This document shows, piece after piece, positions 7,268 through 63,610 of a stretch of 64,000 nucleotides of DNA; the first letter of the stretch is position 1, and every line of letters starts with the position of its first letter. The notes below the pieces were generated by a model. The model searched no databases and was not told where the DNA came from. It saw nothing but the letters and a program-made list of their open reading frames with translations. The stretch covers positions 3,286,001 to 3,350,000 of the forward strand of contig CAIIXF020000001.1 of the NCBI GenBank assembly GCA_903813345.2, given 5' to 3'. Position numbers and translations under genes: made by a program. This stretch comes from Owenia fusiformis (lineage: Eukaryota).

Positions 7268-9613
7268 TCAACATTTTAATTCACTACCAAGTTCCTGCTC
7301 TTTTACATGTTCCGTTGATGGGGCCTCATTAGACATGGCCTTTAACTCCAGTTGGTCTAAACAGGACTGGATGTATTTCACTGTCTTTTTCCGTGCTTGT
7401 CGGATTTCATCTTGTCCATTTGATTCTACTAAATCCAATTTCAGTAAAGATCTAGTCAACATTTCTTCTAACATTTTATATTGTTTATCTTGTTTAGACC
7501 CTGTGAAGTCTTCAATCTGTGTTTGATACCCCATTGCCTCCGAGAGAACTTTCTCAATCGTCTCCATTGGGGTGAGTTTAGGTGCTGGAGAAGGGGACCT
7601 AGATCTTGGTTTCACATCCTCTGGTTTCTGAAGAAATGCACCTGACTTTGCTTCAGTAGGTTTAGCAGTTGGTTCAGCTGAGTATTGTTGTTGAGGTTGC
7701 TGAGGTCTTGACTGACGTTCAGGCTCGGGTGGATTTCCAGGTCCATGGGCTATGGGTATCTCCCAAGCTTTTTGCCCAGAATCTTTGCTTGGTTTAAACT
7801 CAGTCCTTCGCAATACAGGGCTTGCCTTTGGGCTACTATGCCGAGCTGTTTCTGAAAAACGTTGTGGGCTAGAACGATGAGGACTTCCTACAAATTGACG
7901 TGATGGATTTGAATGGTTAGTGTCCATGGGCTCAGATTGTTGTGGTCCCCAATTCTGTTGCTGAGGTGGCATTTGTTGAGGGCGTTCTTGATTATGGCCT
8001 GAACCTTCATGTACAATTGGTATCTGAACTCCATCTTGATGACCTGATGTCGCATGTGACTGAAAATATATAAAACAAAGATCAATATAAATGTATACAG
8101 TCTACAGAATAGGCAAAAATATGATCACATTCTGAAAAAAAATTAGCTTACTCAATCTATATAAAAGGTATTTAATTTCCAGCGAAATGCTATGAAGAAG
8201 TAAATATATGAATCTGCATATGTTACAAAGTAATATTTACCATCTACTCTACCCTTGATTAAATTTCCACTGATTTAAACATTTGGGTGACCATTTAGCG
8301 TATCGAAGTAATAGTAAATTCCTGCTCTAGACAGCAAATTTGAATCAACATTATACATCTCAGTGGGATAGCGTGAGTACTTTGTGAGTGTATGATACAG
8401 TGAGAGAACTGAATGAGCTTTGAGGGGGGTTCTCCCCCAAGAAAATTACAAAACAAAATTGCATTTGAAGCATTCTGGGGCATTTTAAAAACGAAATTCA
8501 GACTACTATGGACTAATAAAATGTAAATTATTGGCCATTTTTATGGGTTCGCTCCCCCCCTTCCGGTCAGGTCAAGGAAACTTTTAACTTCTGGTCAAGA
8601 TTTTAATTACACTAAATTTAGGAACTTTCCAAACAGTTTCGGCCTTTTAAATCCTGTGTAATATTTTGCAATATCGTTCAGTTTACTTATGCCATGCTCA
8701 GTTTGTCCCGATTTTCTCTAAATTTAATGTTCTCAGTGGTCAAGCAGGTGACCTCACTTGACCCTGACGTCACTGATCACTGTTGACCAATCAGTGCGCA
8801 GTAGACCAGACCCATACATCGCTATCGCTCTCGTTTTATTTGAACAGATTCCAATTTGCTGCTACAATATTGCGTATACCACCAAGTACCAACCACCATA
8901 CTGTATTTGGGATTGACGCACATATTTCACACAACCCCAAGCACCTGCAGAGGGTGTCAGATATGTTGTTTTACACCGTTACACCGTAAAGATTTGTTGG
9001 ACCATTCTCGGATTCGATAAATAAAAGATTTTCTTATTTTCTACGACAATTTGGTTACTTTTAATTCGGGTAGGGAACTTTTTCCAATTGTGGTTAGCAA
9101 TATAGTTACACAACGACAGAATCTCAAAGATAATCATGCAATAAAATAATTTTGGAATGTGTTTTTGATCCTACCACCCCTATGAAAAAAATAAAAGCGC
9201 CCGCCTGGGTCGCCTGCCCGCCTGTAGGTGCATTCATGCAGCCTCTGGGTCTCTGAGGATCGTGTTGGCCCTAATGCAAGTCCATACGACAATCCTACGC
9301 ATTAGAGGCAGTGTTCACCGTCCGCCTGTACAATAGTCTACAGGTAACCGGAAAAAACTTGTTTAAGGCTGTAGTTCAGGAATATAGGCCCAATGTAAAC
9401 AATGTTAAATGAATAGAATTATATCTAAACTCAACTTACGTGTCGCCTTGGGTCTGACCAAGTCGTTTTCTGTTCACGATGGTTGACAAAAAATGGCCAA
9501 CCAGTTTGTGGGTCGATCAACATTTCCCAATCGGGTGGTAATGGTTCGTTATTCACTGGTGGTTGTGCTCTCTGTTGTCGCTGTTGATAATGGTGGTTAT
9601 TATGGTATGACAT
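7268..9613 (-). CDS. BAG3: BAG3/starvin-like Hsp70 co-chaperone (WW + two IPV-like motifs + Pro-rich region + BAG domain); exons 9613-9440 and 8059-7268
   Basis: Exon 1 encodes a WW domain ([32 protein letters not shown]) and ends at a phase-0 gtaagt donor. Acceptor ttttcag opens [18 protein letters not shown], in frame with the 7268-7972 ORF. That ORF contains WEIPIAH, RSRSPSP and a BAG domain ([38 protein letters not shown]). Confidence 0.9.
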
Positions 9614-9706: not shown

Positions 9707-9960
9707 AACAACCAATGAAATCATTTGTTACAAACATACTTGGATTGGTTTTTGTACACATTCCAAATATATGGCAAATAAATTTCAGTACGATAAGACA
9801 AATAAGCAAATAATTTGCATTTCGAGAAACTATTATAAAACAAAATTCTGCTACTGATGTACGTGAGACAGTTTTGTCCTGAATATAATGTTACTTTTAT
9901 TTTCACTAATTGCTAAATAAATTGGACTGTGTATCAAGATAAAAACAAAAGTTTATTGAA

Positions 9961-10347
9961 ATGGCAGCTTTACATCGAGCCTTATTTACTTGGTTTATCG
10001 TGCTAATATCCATCATATTGCTTGTATTAAAACTAGATGGAAAGGCTGAATGGAACTGGTTTATAATAGTGATACCTATGTGGTTATTTGATGGTATTAT
10101 TGTTGTGTACATTATTTTCAAAATGATCAGTCACTGCATCAATGGTTATTCAGACCTCACAATGCCTAGGAAAGTATGGTTCCTAATATGTATGTTGATG
10201 AAACTAACATTCCAAGTACTGATATGTGTACGCCTAGAAAATTACAACGCGATGCCACTTTACTACGCCATGATCCCATTTTGGTTGCTTATGATTGCAA
10301 CGACAGGTGACATTGGACGAACAATACTAAGTAAAATTCAGCAATGA
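9961..10347 (+). CDS. TMEM60: Transmembrane protein 60, single coding exon
   Basis: 128-aa hydrophobic ORF with LVLKLDGKAEWNWFIIVIPMWLFD and KVWFLICMLMKLTFQ, matching the TMEM60 family pattern as recalled. Confidence 0.88.
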   Translation: MAALHRALFTWFIVLISIILLVLKLDGKAEWNWFIIVIPMWLFDGIIVVYIIFKMISHCINGYSDLTMPRKVWFLICMLMKLTFQVLICVRLENYNAMPLYYAMIPFWLLMIATTGDIGRTILSKIQQ

Positions 10348-15199: not shown

Positions 15200-15815
15200 G
15201 GTAAAGTACAGTAAAGTATAATACTGAACAGTACAGTACCATACTATTATGTGCAGTATAGTACAACACCATACAGTACTGTGTAGTACAGTATAGTAAA
15301 ATAGAGTACTTAACGGTATAGTAAAACATCATACATTACTGTGAATAATAGTACAATACCATACAGTATAGTACAATACAATACAGTACTATGCAGTATA
15401 ATACAATATCATACAGTTATGTGTAGTATAGTACAATACAGCAGTGTAGTACAACACTATACAGTACTATGCAGTATAATACAATATCATACAGTTATGT
15501 GTAGTAAAGTACAATACAGCAGTGTAGTACAACACTATACAGTACAGTATAGTACGATACCACACAATACTGTACAGTAGAGTACAATACCATACAGTAC
15601 TATGTAGTATAATACAATACTGTGCAGTATTGTAAAATATCATAAAGTACTATGAAGTACAAAATAGTACAATACCATACAATACTGTGCAGTATAGTGC
15701 AATATCATACAGTACTGTATATAGTAAAACACCATACAATACTTTGCAGTATAGTATAATACAATACCATAGAGTACCGTACAGTATAGTTAGTACAGTA
15801 TAGTATAGTACACTA
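15200..15815. repeat. Degenerate low-complexity tandem repeat (tacag/tatag/tacaa pentamer-based)
   Basis: Repeated catacagtactatgcagtatagtacaatac variants. Confidence 0.85.
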
Positions 15816-16632
15816 CTACCTAAAATATGAATTTGCCATCAACTAGATAAATGGCAATATGAAAGCACCAGAGAAAATGAAAGAACGTTTTGACAGTTTG
15901 ACATGCAATTTAAATGAAAGAAATATAAAATATGTTTATATACAAACACTGAATGTAAATAATAAAATTACAATTCCATGCTATATCCCATAAAAAGTAA
16001 AATTCCAATAAAAGTCATTTAGTTCATTCCTTGTACACGTTGTAGATAAATATCTTATAAAATTCTGTATGAGGAAGATTTGTATTTAAATGAGTTATTA
16101 CATTCTTCCAAGCATAACTGAATAAATAAATTATATAATGATCCAATACTGGTATTCTAGATTTTTTCTGACCAAAAATGTACAAAACTGTACTTGATTG
16201 ACTTAACCTTCTGTTAATATCTAATAAAATAGGCAAACTTAGTTGCATATTTTCCAAATGGGCATGAAATAACAATTTTTTAATTCACATACCCATCTCA
16301 ATGACAATTTAATCTATTCTGACTTTGCATTGTTTTTACAGTATATGCACAAAATATGATAATGAACTGAGATGTACATGAAAAATAGTATGGCTGAATA
16401 ACTCCACCTTTCCCATGCCTGCTGCTACAAAGAGCTCATCATGTCACATGTGTAATTTTTAGTTCATTTTTTGTCCCATTCAAAATTTCAATTGTAATTG
16501 AGAATACATGAAGTGTATAATTATTCAATGCCAATAATAGTATACAATCTTTTGCAAATAAAATTACCCCCAAAATTCAGACATCATTTCAGACATTCCA
16601 CCCATAACCATGAAATAGTATAATTAATCTAA

Positions 16633-17291
16633 TTACAAAATATGCATACTTTGTTTTTCTCCCATCAATCCATCAATATATCCCGTGATTGGATCAATGT
16701 AGTGATGTTCCACTACAGGCTTCATATGTTCATTCATTACAGGCCTCATATGTTCATTTACAGGCCTAATATGTTCACTTACAGGCTTTAAATGTTCACT
16801 TACAGTTACATCATTCATTTCATCAACATTTAGATTCAATAACCTATCAACTTCTTGATTAAGAGCTTTAAGGTCCATTGTCTTTACCCATTTGATTTCC
16901 ATACCTTTGTGCCGATTTCTGCAGTGTTTACGACAATTTCCCCCAGTTTTACATGTAAAATTACAATAGAAACACTTGTAAGGACGAGCCTCTTTATGGA
17001 CATGCATTACACGAATATGAGTTTTCAAATGACTTAGAACACTTGCTTTTAAGCCACATATGGGGCATTGCAAAGTTTTCTCTTTGTGAATCCACTTGAT
17101 GTGTCCTTTAAGATTGTGATCAGAGCTGAATGCCATGCCACAAGCATCACAGACATGTTCTTTAATACCAAGATGACTGTCCATATGCTCCTTGAATCGC
17201 CGCTTTCTCTCTGTAGCGTATTTACATAAGTTACATTCGTACACGATTTGGGTCTCCTTGAGCTTAATGCGATGTTTTGCAAACATATGAT
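16633..17291 (-). CDS. BTB-ZF alternative terminal exon T3
   Basis: Acceptor ttttgcAG|ATCAT, phase 1: (N)HMFAKHRIKLKETQIVYECNLC... with 4 fingers and a PV(S/N)EH repeat tail; stop at 16633. Confidence 0.85.
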
Positions 17292-20200
17292 CTGCAAAAT
17301 GGAGATAAACATGATTTATATATAATAATTATCATAAAGATTAACAAGAGCATCTCCATTCTGCAGAAGTCATAATGTTCCTAAAATGTGCACCATTATA
17401 TTTTTATTCTGTCCCATGATACACATTATGCTCAGTACTCCAGAAGATGATTTTTGTTGAAAATTTTGTTGAAAAAGAAAGAAAACTTGATAAAATTTAT
17501 AACAATCTCTAGTGTCTTTAAAATATTGTCATGGGAAAAAATAAATATACAATGTTTATGCCAAATGTGTAAGTTACAGCGCATGAAAATTCTCAATCTA
17601 AAGCCCATTGCATCCATTGGAGGCTATAAATAAATATAGGGAATTACAACCTTTAGTCCTTCAGCCCACATTCAATAGAAATTCTCAACATTAAAATATA
17701 TAATCACCTAGCTACATCGCAATATTACTACCTGGTAGTTACAGTAAAATAACATCACCGGGCGACAGGAAAATAATATCACCTACTATTCATTGGTAAT
17801 TTCACTTTTGGTGAGATTCACGGCAGTTGTTTGCAACATTTGTGGTTCTTCTATGGGGTCAACTTTGACCCATTTGACTTTGAGACCCTTGTGTTTAATA
17901 TGGCTGTGATTGGCTATATTGTTGCTAAGTGCACATCGATGGTCACAATAGAAACATTTGTAAGGTTTAACACCTTTATGAGTGTGTTGCAAGCGTATGT
18001 GCTTTTTCATATATTTCGGGTCAGCTGCCATGTGGTTACAATAGAGACATTTTATATCTTTTTCACCGTGAACTCGCCGAACATGTTTTTTGAGTTCAGC
18101 ACCTTCTATGAACATTTTCCCACATATTGAGCAAATATGGTCTCTTTCATTTGTGTGATATTTCACATGACGCTTTAAACGTGACGTCAAATCAGTCACA
18201 TATGTACAATGGGGGCACTTGAAAACATGGTGCTTCTTGCGTGTTGTTTCACCATGTAATGCAAACATGTGACCTGCAATGAAAGGAAAGTGGTACTTTG
18301 TTATTCATTCTGTAATGCATGACTGTAGTACAGGCATGAAGGGAAACAATTTAATCTCATAGCATTTGAACATAAGTACCACTTCCCTTTTATTGCAGTT
18401 TATGTCTTAGTTATCATGTTCAGTGACCTGTTTCCTATCATACCTCAAATACAGTCCTCATTGTTGCTTTATTTATTACGTATATTACATCCAACAGGAA
18501 ATATTTTACAGCAAAATCTGTATAACACAAACTTTAAAAATCTCAATGATGTTGGTGTTTTGAAATACACCTGTGCTGTCGACAGTGGGCTTACAAACAT
18601 AACCACTGAATGAAATAAACAGATTACAGGGGTTTTACCACCAGAGCTATGATTTACAGATTTTACAGTATATCGTTAAAACCATGCACTCTCAATGAAC
18701 AGACGAACACATCTTAGTTTAAATGTATACTATTATTATTAGTATTCTTTCGTTTTATACACAACTATTAAAACATGACATGAATCAAAACAAGGAAGAA
18801 TGGTAATATGCGACTCCTAATTTATTAACACATAAGTCAATCATGTTTTATGCCAAGAATGGGGCCTTTGCATATAGTGCCAGTTTGAGCCCGACATGCC
18901 AGGGGCTTGCAATGGAGGTGATGGGATTCTATTGGTGCTCGCAAGTGAAGGATCATCATCATGAGTTATAACTGATGGTTTCTCGGCCGAGAATGAATCA
19001 CCAACTTTTAAACCAATACTGTCAATAGCCATCGTCATATTTTCTTGATTCTTTTGAATATCATTGCCCTTAACCATTGATTTAACTTCATTGTCTTCTT
19101 CCCCAATAGGGAATATTGATGACCTTCCACCCGAGAATGATCCACTTGGCTTAATAACAATACTACTTTCAAGACTTTCTTGAGTTTTGTCTGTGATTTT
19201 GATCCACCTAACCTCTTCATTTTTGTGGCGATTCATGCAATGTTTGCGACAATTCCCAGATGTTGCACATACAAAATTACAATAAAAACACTTATATGGT
19301 TTGTGATTTCTATGAGTGTGCATGATTTTGACATGGTCTTTCAAATGGGTAGTATCATTGGTCACATAATTGCAAAAGTCACAAGTCAGGTTTTTTGGGG
19401 TATGTTTCCATTTTTTATGCTTTCGAAGGGTACGTATTGATATGAACATTTGTCCACAGATATCACAGCTGTACTCTTTGATGCCTCTGTGAGACCTTTG
19501 GTGGTCCTCAAACCTCTGTCGGCGTTCACACGCAAATCCGCAAATCTCACACTCGAAAATAATCATAGTTTGACTCAAAACAATATGGTGAAGAGCAAAC
19601 ATGTGACCTGGAATTTCAAACAAGTTACAATCATTAATACAACGGAGTTTTTATCACTCTGAGCTTCATCTGAAAAATAAAATCTACAAATAAAAGAAAT
19701 CTTAAAAATGAAGAAATATGTGTATGTCTCATCAGTCTCCTCAAAAAAGTGTGAGTTTTTGGTAACCTTGGTAAATGTTCAGTAGTAATGACTAATTCAA
19801 GAGATACTTAAAGGCCCCAGGTAAAATTTACTCCAAAGTATAACATACAGGGTGTCAAATAAGTCCTGTCCCCCATGCTACAGCTTAAACCTTAATAGAT
19901 GGTACCTAGTGTGATATACCATTGGAAAGATCATCCAAAGTTATGTAAAATTACCAACTCTCAAGTATTTTGGATGAAATTCACCTATATTTTCATGATG
20001 TCCTTCATAGTGAGTGTACCCTCAGCTTTTATTGCGTCAAAATGAGAAGGATATGACCTCATAAATATGTCAAAAAGTTAACCTTTTTCGCATTCCACCT
20101 GTTACAAAAAGGTTTTCACCACTTTCCTTGCACCTCTGTTTTCTACACATCTAGCCCTATCCAGAAATAGGTTTAATTTATTGCCATTTACATATGTTGT

Positions 20201-23200
20201 CATCCTTAGGTCCTTTGACTTTTATTATACCCGATTGTTATAATCCTGCCAAATACACCAATTTGCCATGTTTTGAGGCCTATTGACCACAATTTATAAA
20301 ATGTAAAAATTGTGATATTGATTGACATGTATCAGATTTACACCAATCAACGTAGGTTTTGGCTGTAGAGGGGGGGACTTATTTGACACCTTAAAATTGT
20401 ACATCCTAAAATTTACTCCAAACCATGACATTTATTCCTAATTTATATTTTAAGAAAAGATATCAAAGCTTATCCTCATAACACCAATTTTTTTAATGAA
20501 AACAGCAGTTAACTATATTCTGATTTGTGAATAGATAAAGATGAAAAGAAATAGAGGTCATTTTTGCAACTATTACCAGAGAAGGAGACAGTTTTTAGAT
20601 AGGCCTAATAGAGATTATTTCCCTGGCAAAACAGTGTACTTCAGTCCTTTTCAAGCAAAATTCTCTTTAAGCAGATAATTAATTAATCCCCAGGGGCCTT
20701 AATAAGTGGATCACCACCTACTATTAATGTCCAAACAAAAACTTACTCTGGTAGTTTCCCTTGTCTGCTGTAGCATAGCCACAATGTGAGCAGACATGTG
20801 TTTTGGCCCCATGACGTGCCATGTGAGTCTTCAGTTCAGCTTCCTCCCCATAGGATGCCCCACATTGGTCACACATATATGGGCGAATGCCACGATGGAT
20901 TTTGTTCATATGCTTCTCGAGATATCTACAACATTTAAACAGAATATGTTGCCAAAAATTTCAAATACATGGATACCAACATTACTTAATTTTTTACTAA
21001 CAAATTTAACTGTTTAAAATACAGTACAGTAGAACCGGTGTAAGTGGAACACCCTTGGGACAAAAAAAGTGTTCCACTTGGGAGGTGTTCCACTTATAGA
21101 GGCTCATTAACATGGAGCAGATAGGCCATGGGACTTTAAAACACTGTTTCACTTGTGAAGTGTTCCACTTATAGAGGTGTTCCACTTAGCAGGGTCTACT
21201 GTACTTTAATGCATTAAATAATCTTCAAGATCCACCTATTACTTTATTCTCTTGTTTTTACAGTATAAGCTTAATATCTGGGTATAATTGATCATTTTAT
21301 TTATAAGATAGACTTACAGTTCTGTCTTTAATTTTTTTCCACACTCTAAGCAAGTGAACATTTTTCCAGGCATGTGTTTCTGAGCATGCTTCTTCAATGT
21401 ATACTTCTGGGGAGTCTTATAGTTGCAACCAGGTTCAGGACACTCAAATACCTATAAGACAATACAATACAATTTGGGATAAGAAACAAAGAACACTGAT
21501 TTTTTAAAATGGTTTTCAGAATACTGTTGATATTGAGAAATTGGTATTTTTATAAGACTTTAGTATAGTACATGGATAGAGCTTAGAACAATGACCAAAA
21601 TATATTAAAAGAGAAAAAATTATAAACATGTGAGAAATTTTAAGTCTCCTCCTCAACAGGGAGGTTTGATTTAAGTTGAAGCAATAAATATAAGTTACCT
21701 GTAAATCTTCCGATTCTATACCATGTAAGGAGAACTCATGGTGTTTAACATGGTATTTACTGGAGAATGTCTTGTTGCACATTGTACAGGAGTAGGCCTT
21801 CATTCGAATCTGATGTTTACGTGTCATGTGATTCGTTACTTGGGACTCTAAACAGCTGGTGTAAGGACACCTCTGGCAGCTGTGCATCACATCTGGATGA
21901 CAGTCTTTATAATGTTCCTTGAGGTTTGTTTTCCCGATGCATTCAAATACACAGCCAGCTTCTTCACATTTCTGTCCTCCTGATATCCCGTTAAAGTCCA
22001 CGCCATGAATTTCCCTACGATGTACCCCTAAATGCTGTCTCTTGAGGAATGTTTTGGGGCAATCGTTGCATTTATATGGTTTTTCTGTTCCATCATAAGC
22101 AGGGATCTGGGCAATTCCATGATTCGCTGCTAAGTGAGAACGCAACTTTGTTCGTTTTGTGAACAATTCATGGCACTCTGTACACACAAAAGGTGTCTTG
22201 AAATGTTGGTTTACCTTTTCTGACCATTTATCAGCCAAATTATCTGGAACGTAATGTATACCTTTCATATGATCCTTCATATATTTCTTGTCACTGAATG
22301 ACTTTTTGCAATATTTACATGGGAATGGTTTTAGCATAATTTCAGAGTGTCTTTGTGAAATGTGTACTGCCAGGACTTTTTCATTTAGGGTTCTATGTGG
22401 ACAAAAGTAACATTTGTAGTAGTGGGGTTTACTCCTCTTCCTCCCCCGTTCTCTCCTCGTTCTAGATTTCTTCGGAATCTCCTTGTGCTTTAAATGCTCA
22501 TGTACTTTCAGGTGAAAGAAGCTCATAAAGGTTGGGAGTTTGGGACATTTTGTACATTTCACAAGGCGTCTGTGCACCTTAGTACAATGTTGTTTGAGGG
22601 ACGTGTGGTATGCGAATGCACCAAGGCAGATATTGCACTTTGGTGGTGGGCCTTCACTGACTGCAAGAGCTACTTGCGTCTGTCTCAGAGCCCTGGCTAA
22701 TAACAACCTACACCTGACACTCTGCCTGTAGACAAACTTGTGTTCTTGCTGGATGTGAAGTTTCACTGTGGCAGCGTGTGGGAACCCTTTATCGCAGTAG
22801 CTACACATGAATGGTCGAGGAAGGGGTTTAGGTTTTAGAAACTGAATTTGCGGGAGTTTGTCCCATTGTTTATATTTAGGCTTTATATTCTCATCTAATT
22901 TCTTTATCTTGATTTTGAGGGTTTTCAGCTTTGGCTTAGCTTTTGATGAACCTTTTGATTTCTTCCCTGTATAATGAGACACCATTTCAAATTCTGCTTG
23001 TTGGTCAACCTTCCTTGGACGACCACGCTTCCGTTTGGATTTGACTGGCTCGACAGGGGTCAAATCAGAAAGGGGCATCCAATCATTGTCACTAAAGTGA
23101 TCCTGCTCATTGTAAGTATCATTCATATCTGGTTCTGCCTCACTGAACACCTCTTGCTTGATGGCAATTTTTGATTTCGGGGTAAGGTCACTTCTTGGGG

Positions 23201-24324
23201 GGTGTGAGGATTGGGGACTTGATGGTTGGGGCTGCCCACTAAAAGGGATGGAAGGATATTCTTGGGTGGTCTGTGTAGAGGCAACTGACATCTCTATTAT
23301 CTTGGCTATTGAAGACTTTCTCTAAAATAAAAAAGTAATAATAATTTTTCAAATTGATTTTTCGAGATACTCAACACTGGGAGCATATTTATTTACACTT
23401 TTGGTGCAGGGTAAATTCAAATATTCTTCTAAACAGAATGCGAAAATTGCTTCAGTGCGAGGAATTCTATTTATATATCTGTTATTCATTTCATCATCAA
23501 CTATGTTAAATATATATCTGATTTTAATATGAAATGAATTCAGAAATGCATTAAAATGAATGTAATACCTGCTCTACATCACTAACAGCAGCACTCTCAG
23601 TCAGGACAGCTTGTTGTGGGAAGACAGGGCCTTCAGTTGTCTTACGAACATACTCCTCACATAGCTTCTTAGCAGCCTGAATGTCCAGTTGTTCAGCTGT
23701 GTTCTTCACTCCCCATACATTAGACTTGTTAAGCATCATTGAGCCAGTGTAGAGGAAATCCAAGAGCTGGTTAACATGGGTTGGGTTGAGGCCTAAGGGG
23801 AAATAAAAATCAATACATAAGTGATATTTTATACATGTATTATGTATAGACCATAGAGTGTGAATATGCAATTTTCTCATCACTTTCTCAAAAATGTTGA
23901 CATGTTTTATTGTAGCATTTAAAAATGTATCCAGTGAAAAACATTGTCTTTGAGAGTAAATATTTAGTCAATTGCTTTGCAAAAATATTCATTTTTATAG
24001 ACAGTACTTACTCATCCCTCAACAAAAATTTACTTTATTTTCACACAGGTGTTGACAATATTGGACAGCCCCCTTCCCCATAATCCTTTTAATTTTGTAT
24101 TCTTTACCTGGCAAATCATATCTGTTGACGAAGAGCATGCCTTGATCAAGAAGTGTTTTGAAATAACCAGACCCACTGACTAGCATTACTTTGTGCAGAT
24201 GGAATTCCACATAGCCACCAATTACAAGCGTGATGTCACAAAGAAGTTGACGCTTGTACAGGCTGTTCACTACAGGGAGCAACTCTGTTGGGAAGTCTGA
24301 TGATGTCATTAACTGCTCATCCAT
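16633..24324 (-). CDS. BTB/POZ + AT-hook + multi-C2H2 zinc-finger protein (ZBTB-like). Constant exons 24324-24108, 23792-23569, 23321-21699, 21451-21318, 20925-20747, then one of three alternative terminal exons
   Basis: BTB motifs LCDITLVIGG..FHLHKVMLVSGSGYF and LLDFLYTGSM..AEQLDI; AT-hook KRKRGRPRK; more than 10 C2H2 fingers. All introns are GT-AG with consistent phases (1,0,0,2,1). Confidence 0.9.
17786..18273 (-). CDS. BTB-ZF alternative terminal exon T2
   Basis: Acceptor ttgcAG|GTCAC, phase 1: (S)HMFALHGETTRKKHHVFKCPHC... with 4 fingers; stop at 17786; AATAAA at 17408-17403. Confidence 0.85.
18841..19607 (-). CDS. BTB-ZF alternative terminal exon T1 (completes the split finger, adds 4 C2H2 fingers and a ~110-aa tail)
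   Basis: Acceptor ttccAG|GTCAC, phase 1: (S)HMFALHHIVLSQTMIIFECEIC...; stop at 18841; AATAAA at 18826-18821. Confidence 0.85.
19848..20390. mobile_element. Degenerate Tc1/mariner-type MITE in the intron before T1
   Basis: (ta)cagggtgtcaaataagtcc...cccc versus ggggggacttatttgacacc. Confidence 0.55.
21027..21201. mobile_element. pogo/Tigger-like MITE; relatives at 62286-63143 and 38255-38315
   Basis: TA|CAGTAGAACC...GGTCTACTG|TA with repeated gtgttccactt motifs. Confidence 0.8.
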
Positions 24325-24945
24325 TGTGATTTTTTAATATTCTCACAGCAATCTGGAATAAGAATTATACTTCATATTATGGTCATGTCAAGAAACAAGT
24401 GTGTAAATCTATTACATATACAACATGTTATGCCTGGGTCACATTTGCTCCGATCCATCTGCCAGCGCCTGGCCGATTGAGTGTTTTGTTCAATATTGTA
24501 TTCAATCTTGAACAAAATACTCAATCAGCCGGGCGCCATAGTGAAAATCGGAGCAAATGTTACCAAGATATTAACAAGCAACTCAAGTAGCTTTAATCAG
24601 CCAATCTGTATTGCTAATGAGTTTGCCCCCATTGCTCATCTCCTTAGCGAGACGGAAAATATTGGTACGGAGGGGACAGTATCAGCAGCAATACTGAGAA
24701 TACAGAATATTTCCTCTTAGGAATGATCTCCCAGGTAAAATGTATTGACCTAAGATCATATGATAAAAATGTTATAGAATGATCTGTACTCTGTAGTGCA
24801 ATACAGGATGTATTCTGCTCTCGATATTCTCAATTTCGTCTCGTTCCAATACAGAATTTCTTCAAATTATCAAACAAATTATTCAATAAGGTATGATTGG
24901 CAGTCGTATGTCTATGTCAATAATCTGCAAAATGCTAATAAGCCC

Positions 24946-25700
24946 CAGGCGCGTATCGTGGTCATTTTGCAAGGGTACGCCCCCGTATGTGGATGAATAA
25001 TGTGTGAAGATGAATGCGATTTTTGGCGTATGATTTTTTGGCCAAACACCCTCAATGAGAGTTTGTTTTCTCTCTACAGAAGTAATACACTCCCTTAATG
25101 AATTTGCATCGATAATGTTGTCATAGCTGGGGCCATTTCTGCAATAGACGTGGTATTAATTGATTAGTAACCCGTGAATTACAGGCCCCCAAAAATAAAA
25201 ACACTACACCAGACGAAAATAGAGAAAGTCGTCTGCACAAGGTCGTGCGAATTTGGAAATGCTCCACACATAAGGGCTTTATTGGCTTAATCAATGTAGT
25301 TAAAGCTAAATCCACTTATCGTATGGTTTAAATGATTAAATTACTTCTTACATTCAATAATGTCAAGTGATACTCAGGTTAAAACGTACTGAATTTGCTG
25401 ATTTTGAGCGTGTACTCTACCGGGATTCGCCATCATACCCCATACGGCCTTGAAGAAGCGTACAAGAATGACGCAACTCTTTGAATCACGAAAAAATTCG
25501 AATCTTTGAATCACGAAAACAGTGAATGACAATGAGGAAATCGAGAACTTATTCAGTGTTAATACACTTGTACAACAAAGGTTTACACATCATCAAAGAA
25601 AATAACAGTAAAATACTGAATTTCATGTTTTTTCAAAATATTTTTTCAAATTCAAACAGTACGCCTGGGCGTATTTTGCGTACATGACGATACGCGCCTG
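24946..25700. mobile_element. Non-autonomous DNA transposon with CAG...CTG termini and an apparent 5-bp TSD (agccc); hAT-like
   Basis: CAGGCGCGTATCGT ... ACGATACGCGCCTG, flanked by agccc at 24941-45 and 25701-05. Confidence 0.7.
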
Positions 25701-25707
25701 AGCCCAT

Positions 25708-26350
25708 ATCCTCCATCAACCAAGCAACCTCCATCAATGCCCTGAAAAAGTGAAGGCTCAGGCGTATAAGTCACTAGTCCGGCCTAATTTAGAGTATGCC
25801 AGCTCGGCATGGGATCCATACCGACAAAAAGATATTGATATGTTGGAACAGGTACAGAGAAGAGCAGCCAGGTTTGTAACCAAATGTCACTCAAGGGAAC
25901 CAGGCTGCGTCACCAAAGCTCTTCAAGACCTACAGTGGGAGCCACTGAAGGAGCGTCGAGAGGCTGCTAGAGTTTTCCTTTTCTACAAAGGAAAGCAGAA
26001 CCTAGCATCCATCGACGTGCCTCCATACTTCCGCCAACAGATCAATACCAACACTAGGTTGTATCATCCTTCTAAGTTCATACAACCATCAACTAGAACG
26101 GATGCATACAAATTTAGCTATTTCCCTAGGACAATAGCTAAATGGAACACTCTACCTGGTGACATCTTAGACTGTGACAGTCTAAGTAGTTTTAAATCAT
26201 CATACTATGCCTATGTCAATAACTGCAATTAAAAAGGTGTGTTTTTAATATAGATCTATGTTTTAATGTAAATGGTCCCCAGTGCACAGCAACAAGCCTG
26301 CACTACTGGTAAAGAGGGGTGATGTCAACGCGGTAGCCTGACAGTCTCCC
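25708..26350 (+). mobile_element. 5'-truncated non-LTR retrotransposon (CR1/L2-group ORF2 C-terminus); boundaries approximate
   Basis: ORF 25750-26232: AYKSLVRPNLEYASSAWDPY..LEQVQRRAARFV...SYFPRTIAKWNTLP, the typical post-RT region. Confidence 0.85.
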
Positions 26351-27569: not shown

Positions 27570-30500
27570 ATGGAATACATACAACAGCAAAACAATGCCA
27601 GTCTTGGCACAATGTAAGTTAATTTTTACGTTTCATTGGTATTAAAGAAGGGTGTATTCCAAAATATGGAGGGTGTGTGTGACACATTTTTTCTCAGTCA
27701 CTGAGTCAGTGTGCTGTGATAGAAAAATGAAAAAATTGTATTTTTTCGTGCCCATCATTTTATTTTACATCTTTATGCATGCGTATTATCAGTTATCACA
27801 CGTTTCAGCATGATACAGGAAATATTCCACGAAAGGTAATATTGTATCATCCACGAAAGCGAAGCTTGAGTCACCCTATGCAGACAGAGCCTGTGGGAAA
27901 TATTGGGTGGGGCGCAAATGAGTGGAGGGTGCGGAGCTAACGGTCATTTTTGAATTTAAAATTGGGATATTTCTGAAACTAAGCCGTTTTGGGACTTCAA
28001 ATATACCAAGATATGTGTATTTGACACCAAATATCAATAAAATTGTGAAAATAGTAGTGCAATTCATTTTATAGCGACGCAGTATGCCTTAAACATTTCC
28101 CAGACCTATATATTTTGAGACTATCCTTTTAATACTGCGTCCCCAGCATTCATAAAAAATGGTGTTCAAGATACACTACCCATGCAAATTATTTTTGCAT
28201 CTTGGAAGCCAGGCAGTATTTTTATAAAATCACACAGATACTGCCTGGCTTCCAAGATGCAAAAACAATTTGTATAGATAGTGAACATTGAACACCATTT
28301 TTTATGAATGCTGGGGACTCAGTATTAAAAGGATAATTTCAAAATATATAGGTCTGGGAAAGGTTTAAGGCACACTGCGTCGCTATAGAATGAATTGCGC
28401 TACTATTTTCACAATTGTATTGATATTTGGTGTCAAATACACATATCTTGGTATATTTGAAGTCCCAAAACGGCTTAGTTTCTGAAATATCCCAAATTTA
28501 AATTCAAAAATGACCGTTAGCTCCGCACCCTCCGCTCATTTGCTCCGCACCCAATATTTCCCACAGGCTCTGTCTGCATAGGGTGTTGAGTGGTGATACA
28601 TTGTTACCCAAGTGGAATATTTCCTGTATCACATAAGCTGAAACGTGTTATCATCATCATCATCATTTGGTACTGTAGCTGTTAGGCTTGTGTGCCTGTT
28701 GTCGCTAAGCTCTTTTTATATTTATCAGCTAAAAACTGATCGTGATATTTTAATCATTTGAACCACCTGGTCCAAGACACTTTAAGTTTGACAGGTGAGC
28801 TAGGTTAAGCATAGACCCCAAAGATCAGACTTGCAGACTGGTCTTCTTGTTGCAGTACTTCAAGGGTGCGTGCTGTTGTTCCGCCATGCTATACTATGGT
28901 GTAGTGTTTTTCTGACCAGAATTTGTCGAGCCTCGTTTTGAAGGTGGTGATAGAGTCTGAACTTATGACGTTCTCTGGTAGACTATTCCAGTCACTGATT
29001 ACTCTCAAGCTGAAAGTGTTGCTTCTAAGTGAAGTTTTGCAGTGTCTCTTGAATAGTTTTTTTGAATGGCCTCTCGTGGTGGAAGTGGATGACTGGGAAA
29101 ATAAATCAGGGTTTAAGTTGACTAGTCCATTGAATATCTTATAAACTTCTATCATATCACCTCTTTTGCGTCTATAATGTAAAGAGTGTAATTTCAGTTC
29201 CTTCAATCTATAACTATATGCTAGGTCCTTTAGTCTATAAATTAATTTAGTTGTTCTTCTTTGGATTTTTTCAAGCTTTCTTTCATCTGTGATAAATCTA
29301 GGGTGCCATATAAAGTTTCCGTAGTCCAAAACTAGTCTAATTATAGCTTTATATACTTTGATAATACTTTGTTTGTCTATATGTCTAAAAGTCCTTTTAA
29401 TCAGGCCTAGTTTGCTGTTCGCTTTGTTGGCTATTCTTGATATATGACTGTGAAATTTTAATTCATTATCAATTGTGATACCCAAGTCATTTTCCTCTGT
29501 AGTCTCTTGTATTGGTGTGTTGTCTAATGAATATGGTTGATGTACATTTCTGGCTCCTCCTAAGTGAAGTACTTTACATTTGTTGGAATTAAATTTCATT
29601 TGCCAGGTTTCTGTCCATTTAGATAGTGAGTCTATATCATCTTGAAGTGACTTTCTTTGCTCTTGTGTTAAGCTCTCTCCATACAACTTAGTATCATCTG
29701 CGAATATTTTGATTGTATTTTTAACTACTTTGGGGGCGTCGTTGATGTAGATAATGAAGAGACAAGGTCCGATCACGGTTCCTTGAGGCAATCCAGATGA
29801 TACTGGGGCTTCTTCTGACATGTCTCCATTTACTCGGACTCTCTGGGTTCTTCCTGATAGAAAATTAGCTATCCAGCGTTGTAAATTTCCTTGAATTCCA
29901 TATGAATCCAGTTTTTTGATGAGCCTCTGGTGCGGGACAGTGTGATGACGATTTTATCACATGTCTAGGAATTTTGAAGCATTTTGATTTGGTCAGTTAT
30001 GGATTGTGTTCAGAACCCTGTACTCCCGGTAACTACAGTATTATAACTTTTGATTTTGCTTTGAAACAATATGACGTCATACCGTTGTATTCGTACTTGT
30101 TTGTGAAATAGTATGTCGTCATATTGTTTTCCTTAGCTAGGAAGTGATATAACCAGTGACATCACATCATTGCTATTGACTCCGTAGTGATACAGCCCAC
30201 TGTATCACATGAAAATTAGCCAGGTGTCTTGTGATACGGAATATACATCATCACAACTGACCAATCAAAATGTTTAGACACTCCTAATCATGTGATAATA
30301 TGCATTACTACAATCATCAAATTCATATCCTGAGTATATATGTAGTAATAAAAGTTCATTTGTAAAAAAGCATTTTGAAACAGTTCAGCTACCGGCAGGG
30401 CCAGGGAGTGGCGTATGATGTAACATCTGCAAATTAAATATCCGCCGCATCTGTTTGACCGTGCACCTCTTCTTTCTTCAGATTATGCTGTAAGTGTGGA

Positions 30501-39713: not shown

Positions 39714-63610
<23,897 letters not shown>

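Follow-up and report, generated by a model that had tools for sequence, protein, structure and literature searches.

A ZBTB-type gene of Owenia fusiformis whose transcripts join a constant zinc-finger body to alternative four-finger terminal exons

Results

A BTB zinc-finger gene with three terminal exons

We analysed a window of 64,000 nucleotides (nt) from Owenia fusiformis, an annelid (GenBank assembly GCA_903813345.2, contig CAIIXF020000001.1, positions 3,286,001 to 3,350,000 of the forward strand; all positions below are those of the window). On the minus strand, a single gene with five constant coding exons encodes a BTB domain, an AT-hook-like motif and 13 C2H2 zinc fingers, and three terminal exons, named T1, T2 and T3, lie downstream of the last constant exon, exon 5. 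In RNA, exon 5 is joined to T1 and to T3. The exon boundaries are all of the AG...GT type and the reading frame is continuous across them, as established by a scripted boundary check. A BTB/POZ domain at the N-terminus and C2H2 fingers at the C-terminus, the combination that defines the ZBTB or POK proteins, are thus encoded in one protein by exons that are joined in RNA. The AT-hook-like stretch KSKRKRGRPRKV (23007-23042) has a GRP core with K or R on both sides, and no Pfam AT-hook match is listed for it at E <= 0.001; in PMC11354804 the AT-hook is described as GRP with basic residues on either side, which this stretch fits. An AG acceptor near 24352, 28 nt 5' of the ATG, marks the start of exon 1, and a piece of an RNA contig spans 24107-24352 with 70 further letters 5' of 24352, which together indicate at least one exon of the 5' untranslated region (UTR) farther upstream.

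The constant part stops within a finger. Exon 5, with an AG acceptor and the donor GTAAGT, ends in ...CSHCGYATADKGNYQ plus 1 nt (A), in phase 1 and inside the 14th finger. The frames of T1, T2 and T3 open directly after a CAG acceptor (19607, 18273 and 17291) in the phase that matches exon 5. Together with the A contributed by exon 5, T1 and T2 complete an AGT codon (Ser) and T3 an AAT codon (Asn). This codon precedes HMFALH in T1 and T2 and HMFAKH in T3, which provide the His pair of the hybrid finger, and its residue is the one at position +6 of that finger, which every terminal exon thereby fixes as well. Each then encodes four C-x2-C-x12-H-x3-4-H fingers, the last of them reading KPYKCFYC..., followed by W(I/V)K, an unrelated tail and its own stop codon. 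The tail of T3 contains 4.2 in-frame copies of a 21-nt (seven-residue) tandem repeat of the form EH(L/I/M)(K/R)PV (16714-16805). An initial annotation, made from the letters of the window, had described this arrangement; its coordinates, phase, sequences, half-fingers, stops, four fingers and W(I/V)K ending were all re-derived and are correct, and the contrast that it drew with the fly genes, a long constant array followed by four-finger modules, matches the 13 constant fingers and the four-finger modules found here.

AATAAA or ATTAAA hexamers are located behind each terminal exon and ahead of the next acceptor, with AATAAA at 18826, 18477/18473 and 18394 on the 3' side of T1 and at 17408 on the 3' side of T2. 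Before the CAG, pyrimidines occupy 14 of 17 positions at T2, 13 of 17 at T3 and 10 of 17 at T1. When the 153 nt preceding each of the three acceptors were aligned, the introns had no motif in common beyond about 7 nt at the acceptor itself. A six-frame scan of the whole 64 kb identified T1, T2 and T3 as the only exons of the HMFA type; outside the BTB gene it met with a single C2H2 pattern, which stands alone on the plus strand (40912-40986) and looks like a chance match.

RNA joins exon 5 to two alternative ends

Sequencing data of four runs were mapped over positions 15900-25500, and the results given here concern the 15 best-supported of 49 splice junctions. RNA evidence comes from a stranded raw RNA-seq run with the same species label (X17; about 6% of the run read, 2609 reads placed) and from a contig set that is spliced and hence RNA (X13). 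Two further runs (X1, X2) were considered as RNA and set aside: introns are covered in them and GT-AG junctions are absent, a DNA-like pattern. Six junctions of the gene, four within the constant part and one each from exon 5 to T1 and to T3, are supported by reads whose first mate is always on the plus and never on the minus strand, and whose CT..AC ends correspond to GT..AG on the minus strand (Table 1). The spliced contigs of X13 carry the same six junctions. Two independent data sets thus show one exon joined to two alternative ends, and in one sample the two are used at similar levels.

The initial annotation had called the three modules interchangeable and had pointed to the junctions from 20747 to 19607, 18273 and 17291 as the check. 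The RNA bears this out for T1 and T3, and with both of these junctions seen, neither the use of a single junction nor a promoter of its own for T3 stands against the proposal any longer. The junction from 20747 to 18273 is not among the 15 best-supported of the 49, and the same status can be given to T2 by deduction only (see Discussion).

Read depth in X17 is 0.5-1 in the intron between exon 5 and T1, 17-19 over T1, 19.3 over T2 and 20-34 over T3, and the 3' UTR of T3 extends beyond 15900, with a depth of 11-12 down to that position. No clear piles of read 3' ends were reported in the mapping of the four runs over this interval. Many molecules begin or end at 17658, 18861, 19874 and 18053. 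The sequenced individuals differ considerably from the window: 1975 of the 2609 X17 reads are only 95-99% identical to it, as are most reads of all four runs, and insertions between individuals include 18 nt at 18368 and 10 nt at 16575, where X17 depth goes down to 1. Such polymorphism lowers local read depth in the non-coding parts.

Table 1. Exons, RNA junctions, predicted acceptor hairpins and contact residues of the BTB zinc-finger gene (nt, nucleotides; aa, amino acids; F1-F4, fingers 1 to 4 of a module)
Feature	Position	Strand	Description
Junction exon 5 to T1	20747/19607	-	X17: 12 reads, 11 start places; X13: 1 contig
Junction exon 5 to T3	20747/17291	-	X17: 16 reads, 11 start places; X13: 1 contig
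Junction exon 1 to exon 2	24108/23792	-	X17: 11 reads; X13: 1 contig
Junction exon 2 to exon 3	23569/23321	-	X17: 11 reads
Junction exon 3 to exon 4	21699/21451	-	X17: 16 reads
Junction exon 4 to exon 5	21318/20925	-	X17: 31 reads, 22 start places
Constant coding exon 1	24108..24324	-	ATG at 24324; first half of BTB; Pfam BTB 3.6e-08
Constant exon 2	23569..23792	-	Second half of BTB; Pfam BTB 1.6e-07
Constant exon 3	21699..23321	-	Linker with AT-hook-like motif and 10 C2H2 fingers; Pfam zf-C2H2
Constant exon 4	21318..21451	-	1 finger and the Cys half of a finger finished by exon 5
Constant exon 5 (last)	20747..20925	-	1 whole finger, then the beginning of the hybrid finger (Cys pair, helix start)
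Terminal exon T1 (coding part and stop)	18841..19607	-	His pair, 4 fingers, 122-aa tail; 1047-aa isoform
Terminal exon T2 (coding part and stop)	17786..18273	-	His pair, 4 fingers, short tail; predicted 954-aa isoform
Terminal exon T3 (coding part and stop)	16633..17291	-	His pair, 4 fingers, tail; predicted 1011-aa isoform
T2 acceptor hairpin (predicted)	18274..18398	-	25-nt arms, 92% complementary
T3 acceptor hairpin (predicted)	17291..17367	-	16-nt arms, 94% complementary
T1 contact residues			F1 RQRD, F2 SRTK, F3 DTHD, F4 TGNK
T2 contact residues			F1 LSRR, F2 EAEK, F3 DKYK, F4 LNNN
T3 contact residues			F1 RRRE, F2 SHNG, F3 VSHT, F4 TGNK

The terminal modules are diverged and constrained

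The 140-residue modules of the three terminal exons align without gaps, with identities of 51/143 between T1 and T2, 72/143 between T1 and T3 and 52/143 between T2 and T3. By the NG86 method, synonymous divergence (dS) is 2.4 for one pair of modules and undefined for the other two, with non-synonymous divergence (dN) of 0.47-0.67; since dS is saturated, a dN/dS ratio between modules is not computable. Identity at third codon positions is 0.35-0.44, compared to 0.48-0.64 at positions 1 and 2. All 18 zinc ligands, 16 of the four fingers and the His pair, are kept in T1, T2 and T3, and an open frame of 162 codons, as in T2, has a chance of 2.5e-6 at this base composition. Among the 40 of 216 differences listed, eight of the ten polymorphisms in terminal exons are synonymous (T2, 2/2; T3, 3/3; T1, 3/5), and both replacements are located in the T1 tail. 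Judged from their sequences, T1 to T3 are old duplicates that have been selectively maintained as coding.

The helix strings that the initial annotation gave for fingers 1 to 3 of the three modules are exact. Taking residues -1, 2, 3 and 6 as the base-contacting positions of the four variable fingers (Table 1), 4 of 16 are identical between T1 and T2, 8 of 16 between T1 and T3 and 2 of 16 between T2 and T3, and the finger 4 residues TGNK are alike in T1 and T3. The differences are large enough to expect different DNA contacts, and a changed choice of targets may follow from them. The strong helix differences emphasized in the initial annotation are thus real, and they are not greater than the differences in the rest of the module, where identity is 31/108 (T1/T2), 48/108 (T1/T3) and 34/108 (T2/T3).

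BTB type, relatives and database status

Neither the FxLRWN motif (searched as F.LRWN) nor LRW is found in the translation of exon 1, so that the BTB domain is not of the Tramtrack (TTK) type by this motif. Compared with solved structures, the first half of the BTB domain matches ZBTB17/Miz-1 best (6.4e-11), followed by KBTBD2, ZBTB7A and NAC1, and the best 60 of 79 solved matches are ZBTB, KLHL/KBTBD, BACH, BCL6 and similar proteins. The question raised with the initial annotation, whether the domain is TTK-type or ZBTB-type, is thereby answered in favour of the ZBTB type.

A deposited Owenia fusiformis protein of 1047 amino acids (P0003) corresponds letter for letter to exons 1 to 5 plus T1; Pfam assigns BTB (5.1e-19, residues 20-123) and zf-C2H2 (8.2e-25) to it. 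An Owenia paralogue of 847 amino acids (P0001) combines a BTB domain with an array of fingers that is collinear (27% identical over 420 residues), and its C-terminus consists of the same half-finger, here HIFTKH, followed by a four-finger module like that of a T exon; at least one paralogue of the same design therefore exists. This C-terminus is nearest to T2 (56/140) in a four-sequence comparison that is unrooted and does not date the duplications. Only P0001 and P0003 have a PYKC.YC last finger near the C-terminus among the 153 proteins scanned.

Vertebrate ZBTB40, which is 23% identical over 42% of the query, and ZBTB11 are the best named relatives outside the species; no orthology is claimed for them. 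PATZ1 is missing from the 18 matches at E <= 1e-10 to the whole of P0003, which include ZBTB40, ZBTB11 and ZNF335, a word-limited search in which such an absence is weak evidence. A profile of the T module retrieved 163,562 matches at E <= 0.001 from 1.84 billion representatives, and the 150 listed are crowded by giant multi-finger proteins, with no orthologues among them. Residues 770-935 of P0003 gave generic C2H2 clusters only in the ESM Atlas.

Predicted hairpins cover the T2 and T3 acceptors

The last 25 intron nt before T2 (18274-18298), comprising the pyrimidine tract and the CAG, are predicted to pair with 18374-18398, 75 nt upstream, and this upstream arm holds the AATAAA at 18394. 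At T3, positions 17291-17306 (the last 15 intron nt and the first exon nt) would pair with 17352-17367, 45 nt upstream, an arm that starts 36 nt below the AATAAA at 17408. The minimum free energy of the T2 fold is -48.7 kcal/mol (z -6.04) and that of the T3 fold -35.6 kcal/mol (z -4.79), with 0 of 200 shuffled sequences as good in either case; for the T1 acceptor the fold has -20.1 kcal/mol (z +1.66), and 192 of 200 shuffles are as good. A scan of all seven acceptors yielded z values of 0.19, 0.40, -0.23, -0.83 and 0.70 for exons 2 to 5 and T1, -6.89 for T2 and -3.98 for T3. The final 20 intron bases are paired with a mean probability of 0.94 at T2, 0.84 at T3 and 0.32-0.74 at the other acceptors. 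What is unusual is the register of the hairpins on the splice site at two paralogous acceptors of different sequence, each with its own matching arm. Over 15 nt (18280-18294 / 20118-20132), the T2 pyrimidine tract is complementary to the exon 5-T1 intron; this candidate docking site was rejected, as by rough estimate about 0.4 such matches are expected by chance.

Repeats and neighbouring sequence

Several high-copy repeats lie within and around the gene. In the intron between exons 4 and 5, summed contig depth over the interval 21036-21356 is 12838 (X1) and 8573 (X2), compared to about 16 nearby; both strands are covered by RNA reads (95.6 and 58.7), and rearranged junctions and loose ends are numerous. 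The interval contains GTGGAACAC / GTGTTCCAC as short inverted motifs and a 17-nt tandem (21145-21188), and it resembles a miniature inverted-repeat transposable element or a short interspersed nuclear element. The intervals 24246-24566 and 24888-25208 (just 5' of exon 1) and 19752-20072 (in the exon 5-T1 intron) are likewise of very high copy number, with a summed depth of DNA contigs as high as 63689. At 24465-24536 lies an inverted repeat of 34 nt that resembles a palindrome, and reads of both strands with junctions between opposite strands occur at 24819-24861.

Farther upstream of the gene, two frames (28889-29953, minus strand, 354 amino acids; 25702-26232, plus strand, 176 amino acids) resemble, judged by eye, the reverse transcriptase of retrotransposons without long terminal repeats, and a large inverted repeat at 27872-28585 has 348-nt arms that are 94% complementary and 18 nt apart. 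Below the T3 3' UTR, a degenerate tandem-repeat block (15208-15812; periods of 10-78 nt) contains long spurious open reading frames on both strands. Finally, long open frames at 7268-8101 (minus) and 9943-10347 (plus) are probably exons of neighbouring genes; one of the two is Pro/Gln-rich with a helical C-terminal part, and the other has several hydrophobic stretches.

Discussion

The observations as a whole are best explained, with good confidence on our part, by one ZBTB-type gene whose pre-mRNA joins the constant body to one of several tandemly duplicated terminal exons. The chosen terminal exon would complete the 14th finger, set its +6 residue and then add four fingers, a tail, a stop codon and a 3' UTR. 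The products would be 18-finger proteins with 13 fingers in common, differing in the last four and in one residue of the hybrid finger, and the different modules would be expected to change the choice of DNA targets. T2 would be joined to exon 5 as well, in some cells or stages: since a half-finger with two His residues is useless without the Cys pair of exon 5, and T2 is constrained, we regard this as likely on the strength of its sequence.

A number of observations weigh against parts of this reading. The junction from 20747 to 18273 is missing from the 15 best-supported of 49. The X13 contig with the exon 5-T1 junction runs unbroken from 19605 to 17262, crosses the T2 acceptor and stops 30 nt into T3, as would be expected if, in that sample, a second path led into T3 and none into T2. 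Reads of the T1 and T3 junctions together (28) nearly exhaust those of the exon 4-exon 5 junction (31) and leave little for T2, with Poisson noise of about +/-8. X17 depth in the spacers is 7 at 18368 and 18769 and 19 at 17320, so that read-through from T1 into T2 and T3 exists, and part of the depth over T2 and T3 is 3' UTR of RNA spliced farther upstream. In a collection of 5.8 billion sequences, word-based searches found no protein longer than 104 amino acids with exon 5 other than the T1 form and no T2 protein longer than 282 amino acids (2 matches among 4 candidates for exon 5 and 2 among 46 for T2, compared with longer proteins); with the T1 form alone present, the deposited annotation holds one isoform. 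The 18 matches to P0003 from the word-limited search contain no close orthologue. Moreover, the contact positions are about as diverged as the rest of the module, and thus show no sign of a special diversification of contact residues.

The points that concern T2 are those to be expected of a two-way switch, in which T1 and T3 are the only ends and T2 is a former cassette exon that splicing never connects to exon 5 and that is now transcribed as part of a read-through 3' UTR. The unlisted junction, the contig that passes the T2 acceptor unbroken, the spacer depth of 7 upstream of T2 and the balance of 28 to 31 junction reads all agree with this explanation, as does the predicted occlusion of the T2 acceptor, the strongest of all (-47 to -48.7 kcal/mol, pairing probability 0.94). 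Such a history is difficult to reconcile with T2 itself, which keeps its 162-codon open frame despite synonymous sites that are saturated relative to T1 and T3, and which has lost neither the exact phase nor the HMFALH half-finger nor any of the 16 ligands, and whose pyrimidine tract is the best of the three; the two polymorphisms listed for T2 are both synonymous. Sense-strand X17 depth over T2 (19.3 in the bin 17826-18146, with point depths of 15-16 at 18077 and 17861) is two to three times the spacer depth of 7, although dips in depth can come from indel polymorphism and no depth step is claimed at the T2 acceptor. In addition, the listed junctions all have a summed support of about 25 or more, so that a T2 junction with about 10 reads and no contig would be hidden. 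We therefore hold a purely two-way switch to be unlikely. T2, or T2 together with T3, might instead form separate transcription units with their own promoters, encoding short four-finger proteins outside the BTB gene, and here the higher depth at T2 than in the spacer, the unlisted T2 junction and an ATG at T2 codon 2 (the M of HMFALH) could be cited. For T3 this is refuted by 16 junction reads and an X13 contig; for T2 it does not account for the conserved CAG acceptor, the phase 1 or a His-His half-finger that has no use unless combined with the Cys pair of exon 5, and the T2 start is not among the positions reported to have a pile of read starts. Independent units are accordingly very improbable, and a single gene with alternative terminal exons remains our preferred explanation.

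How one of these terminal exons would be chosen is a matter of prediction. Exon choice may be a competition between splicing to a distal acceptor and cleavage and polyadenylation behind the proximal exon, and the hairpins at T2 and T3, which touch the preceding poly(A) signals, may modulate it. The T1 acceptor would be open but pyrimidine-poor (10/17), whereas those of T2 and T3 would be strong (14/17 and 13/17) but masked. From the predicted folds, the chances that the hairpins matter for exon choice appear about evenly balanced. Nearly as probable is that these inverted repeats arose incidentally, for instance as remains of transposons or in the course of the duplications, and have no effect on the choice: inverted repeats of at least 16 nt within 150 nt are frequent (61 pairs in 64 kb), the T2 fold lies in the lowest 2.4% and the T3 fold only in the lowest 9.9% of 2202 background windows, and T3 is well spliced despite its stem. 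An accidental origin fits less well with arms that at both acceptors end within 1 nt of the splice junction, with pyrimidine tracts that differ between T2 and T3 and yet each have their own matching upstream arm, and with the other five acceptors being unstructured; all three listed polymorphisms in the hairpins (17320, 17322, 18368) fall in loops, a number that is not significant. Local stems over 3' splice sites are known from other cases of occlusion by RNA hairpins, and tandem terminal exons with their own stops and poly(A) hexamers from alternative last exons and intronic polyadenylation. The occluded acceptors would differ from these by their position beside the preceding poly(A) signal, within a paralogous terminal-exon cassette, as we read the predicted folds; we came across no description of such an arrangement, although no literature search was aimed at it.

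The arrangement resembles that of lola, tramtrack, broad, fruitless and mamo, in which common 5' BTB exons are joined to alternative 3' C2H2 exons, as exon 5 is to T1 and T3. It differs from lola in the 13 constant fingers before the switch, in a switch point that lies inside a finger, and in having four-finger modules and only three of them. The modules of lola comprise one or two fingers. In contrast to the Tramtrack group, the Owenia BTB domain is not TTK-type and the host is not an arthropod. According to the sections of PMC11426971 that deal with this group, an N-terminal FxLRWN motif defines it and it is restricted to arthropods; many TTK-type factors have isoforms that differ in the DNA-binding domain, 17 of 20 lola isoforms have different C-terminal fingers, and trans-splicing has been reported for lola and mod(mdg4). 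The same sections describe Drosophila BTB-C2H2 proteins outside the TTK type as having a single isoform each and tie isoform multiplicity to TTK-type BTB domains (PMC11426971), unlike the Owenia gene with its at least two finger-module isoforms. Since the Owenia domain is not TTK-type and TTK-type domains are arthropod-only, its lola-like layout probably arose independently. The initial annotation had considered this a possibility, and the missing FxLRWN motif, the vertebrate proteins ZBTB17, ZBTB7A and NAC1 as nearest solved structures and the annelid host lend it support.

An N-terminal ZBTB-type BTB domain with many C2H2 fingers is shared with the ZBTB/POK family, such as ZBTB17/Miz-1 and ZBTB40. 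A parallel in domain order is vertebrate PATZ1 (ZBTB19), described in the relevant parts of PMC11354804 as having a BTB domain, a middle AT-hook, C-terminal C2H2 fingers and four alternatively spliced isoforms with four to seven fingers; the Owenia gene likewise combines a ZBTB-type BTB domain, an AT-hook-like motif and C-terminal C2H2 fingers. In that description the PATZ1 isoforms vary in the number of fingers and, unlike the Owenia modules, are not presented as a swap of paralogous modules (PMC11354804). For annelids and other spiralians, keyword searches of open-access main texts found no report of a BTB gene whose fingers are encoded by alternative exons, which is not proof of absence. 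Finger-encoding alternative terminal exons are already known from insect BTB genes and alternative last exons are common; the Owenia case is no new principle. Its points of interest are the phylum, the type of BTB domain, a switch point within a finger, by which the hybrid finger varies with the module, a constant array of 13 fingers followed by four-finger modules, an RNA-supported isoform missing from the annotation and the predicted masking of the distal acceptors.

A further-reaching scenario, which we put forward as doubtful in its entirety, is that a spiralian ZBTB subfamily, comprising this gene and at least P0001, independently invented lola-style swapping, with exon choice gated by RNA structure, polyadenylation of one module mechanistically coupled to the unmasking of the next acceptor, and T2 as a conditional third specificity. 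In this scenario a hairpin would lock each distal acceptor, and the arm that pairs with the acceptor would be situated at the poly(A) signal of the preceding terminal exon or a short way below it. Whether or not choice is gated in this manner, hairpin-occluded distal acceptors offer a concrete hypothesis for how tandem terminal exons might be balanced.

For database users, the deposited annotation is that of T1 only: the T3 form exists in RNA but has no entry in the protein collection searched. With three modules and one hybrid finger, the gene is a small and tractable case in which the effect of terminal fingers on target choice, and the behaviour of BTB dimers of mixed isoforms, could be addressed. 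The swapping of DNA-binding modules on a common BTB body is the textbook route by which the insect genes lola, fru, br and ttk make many regulators. An annelid ZBTB gene outside the TTK type, with alternative modules supported by RNA, indicates that this strategy is bound neither to TTK-type BTB domains nor to arthropods.

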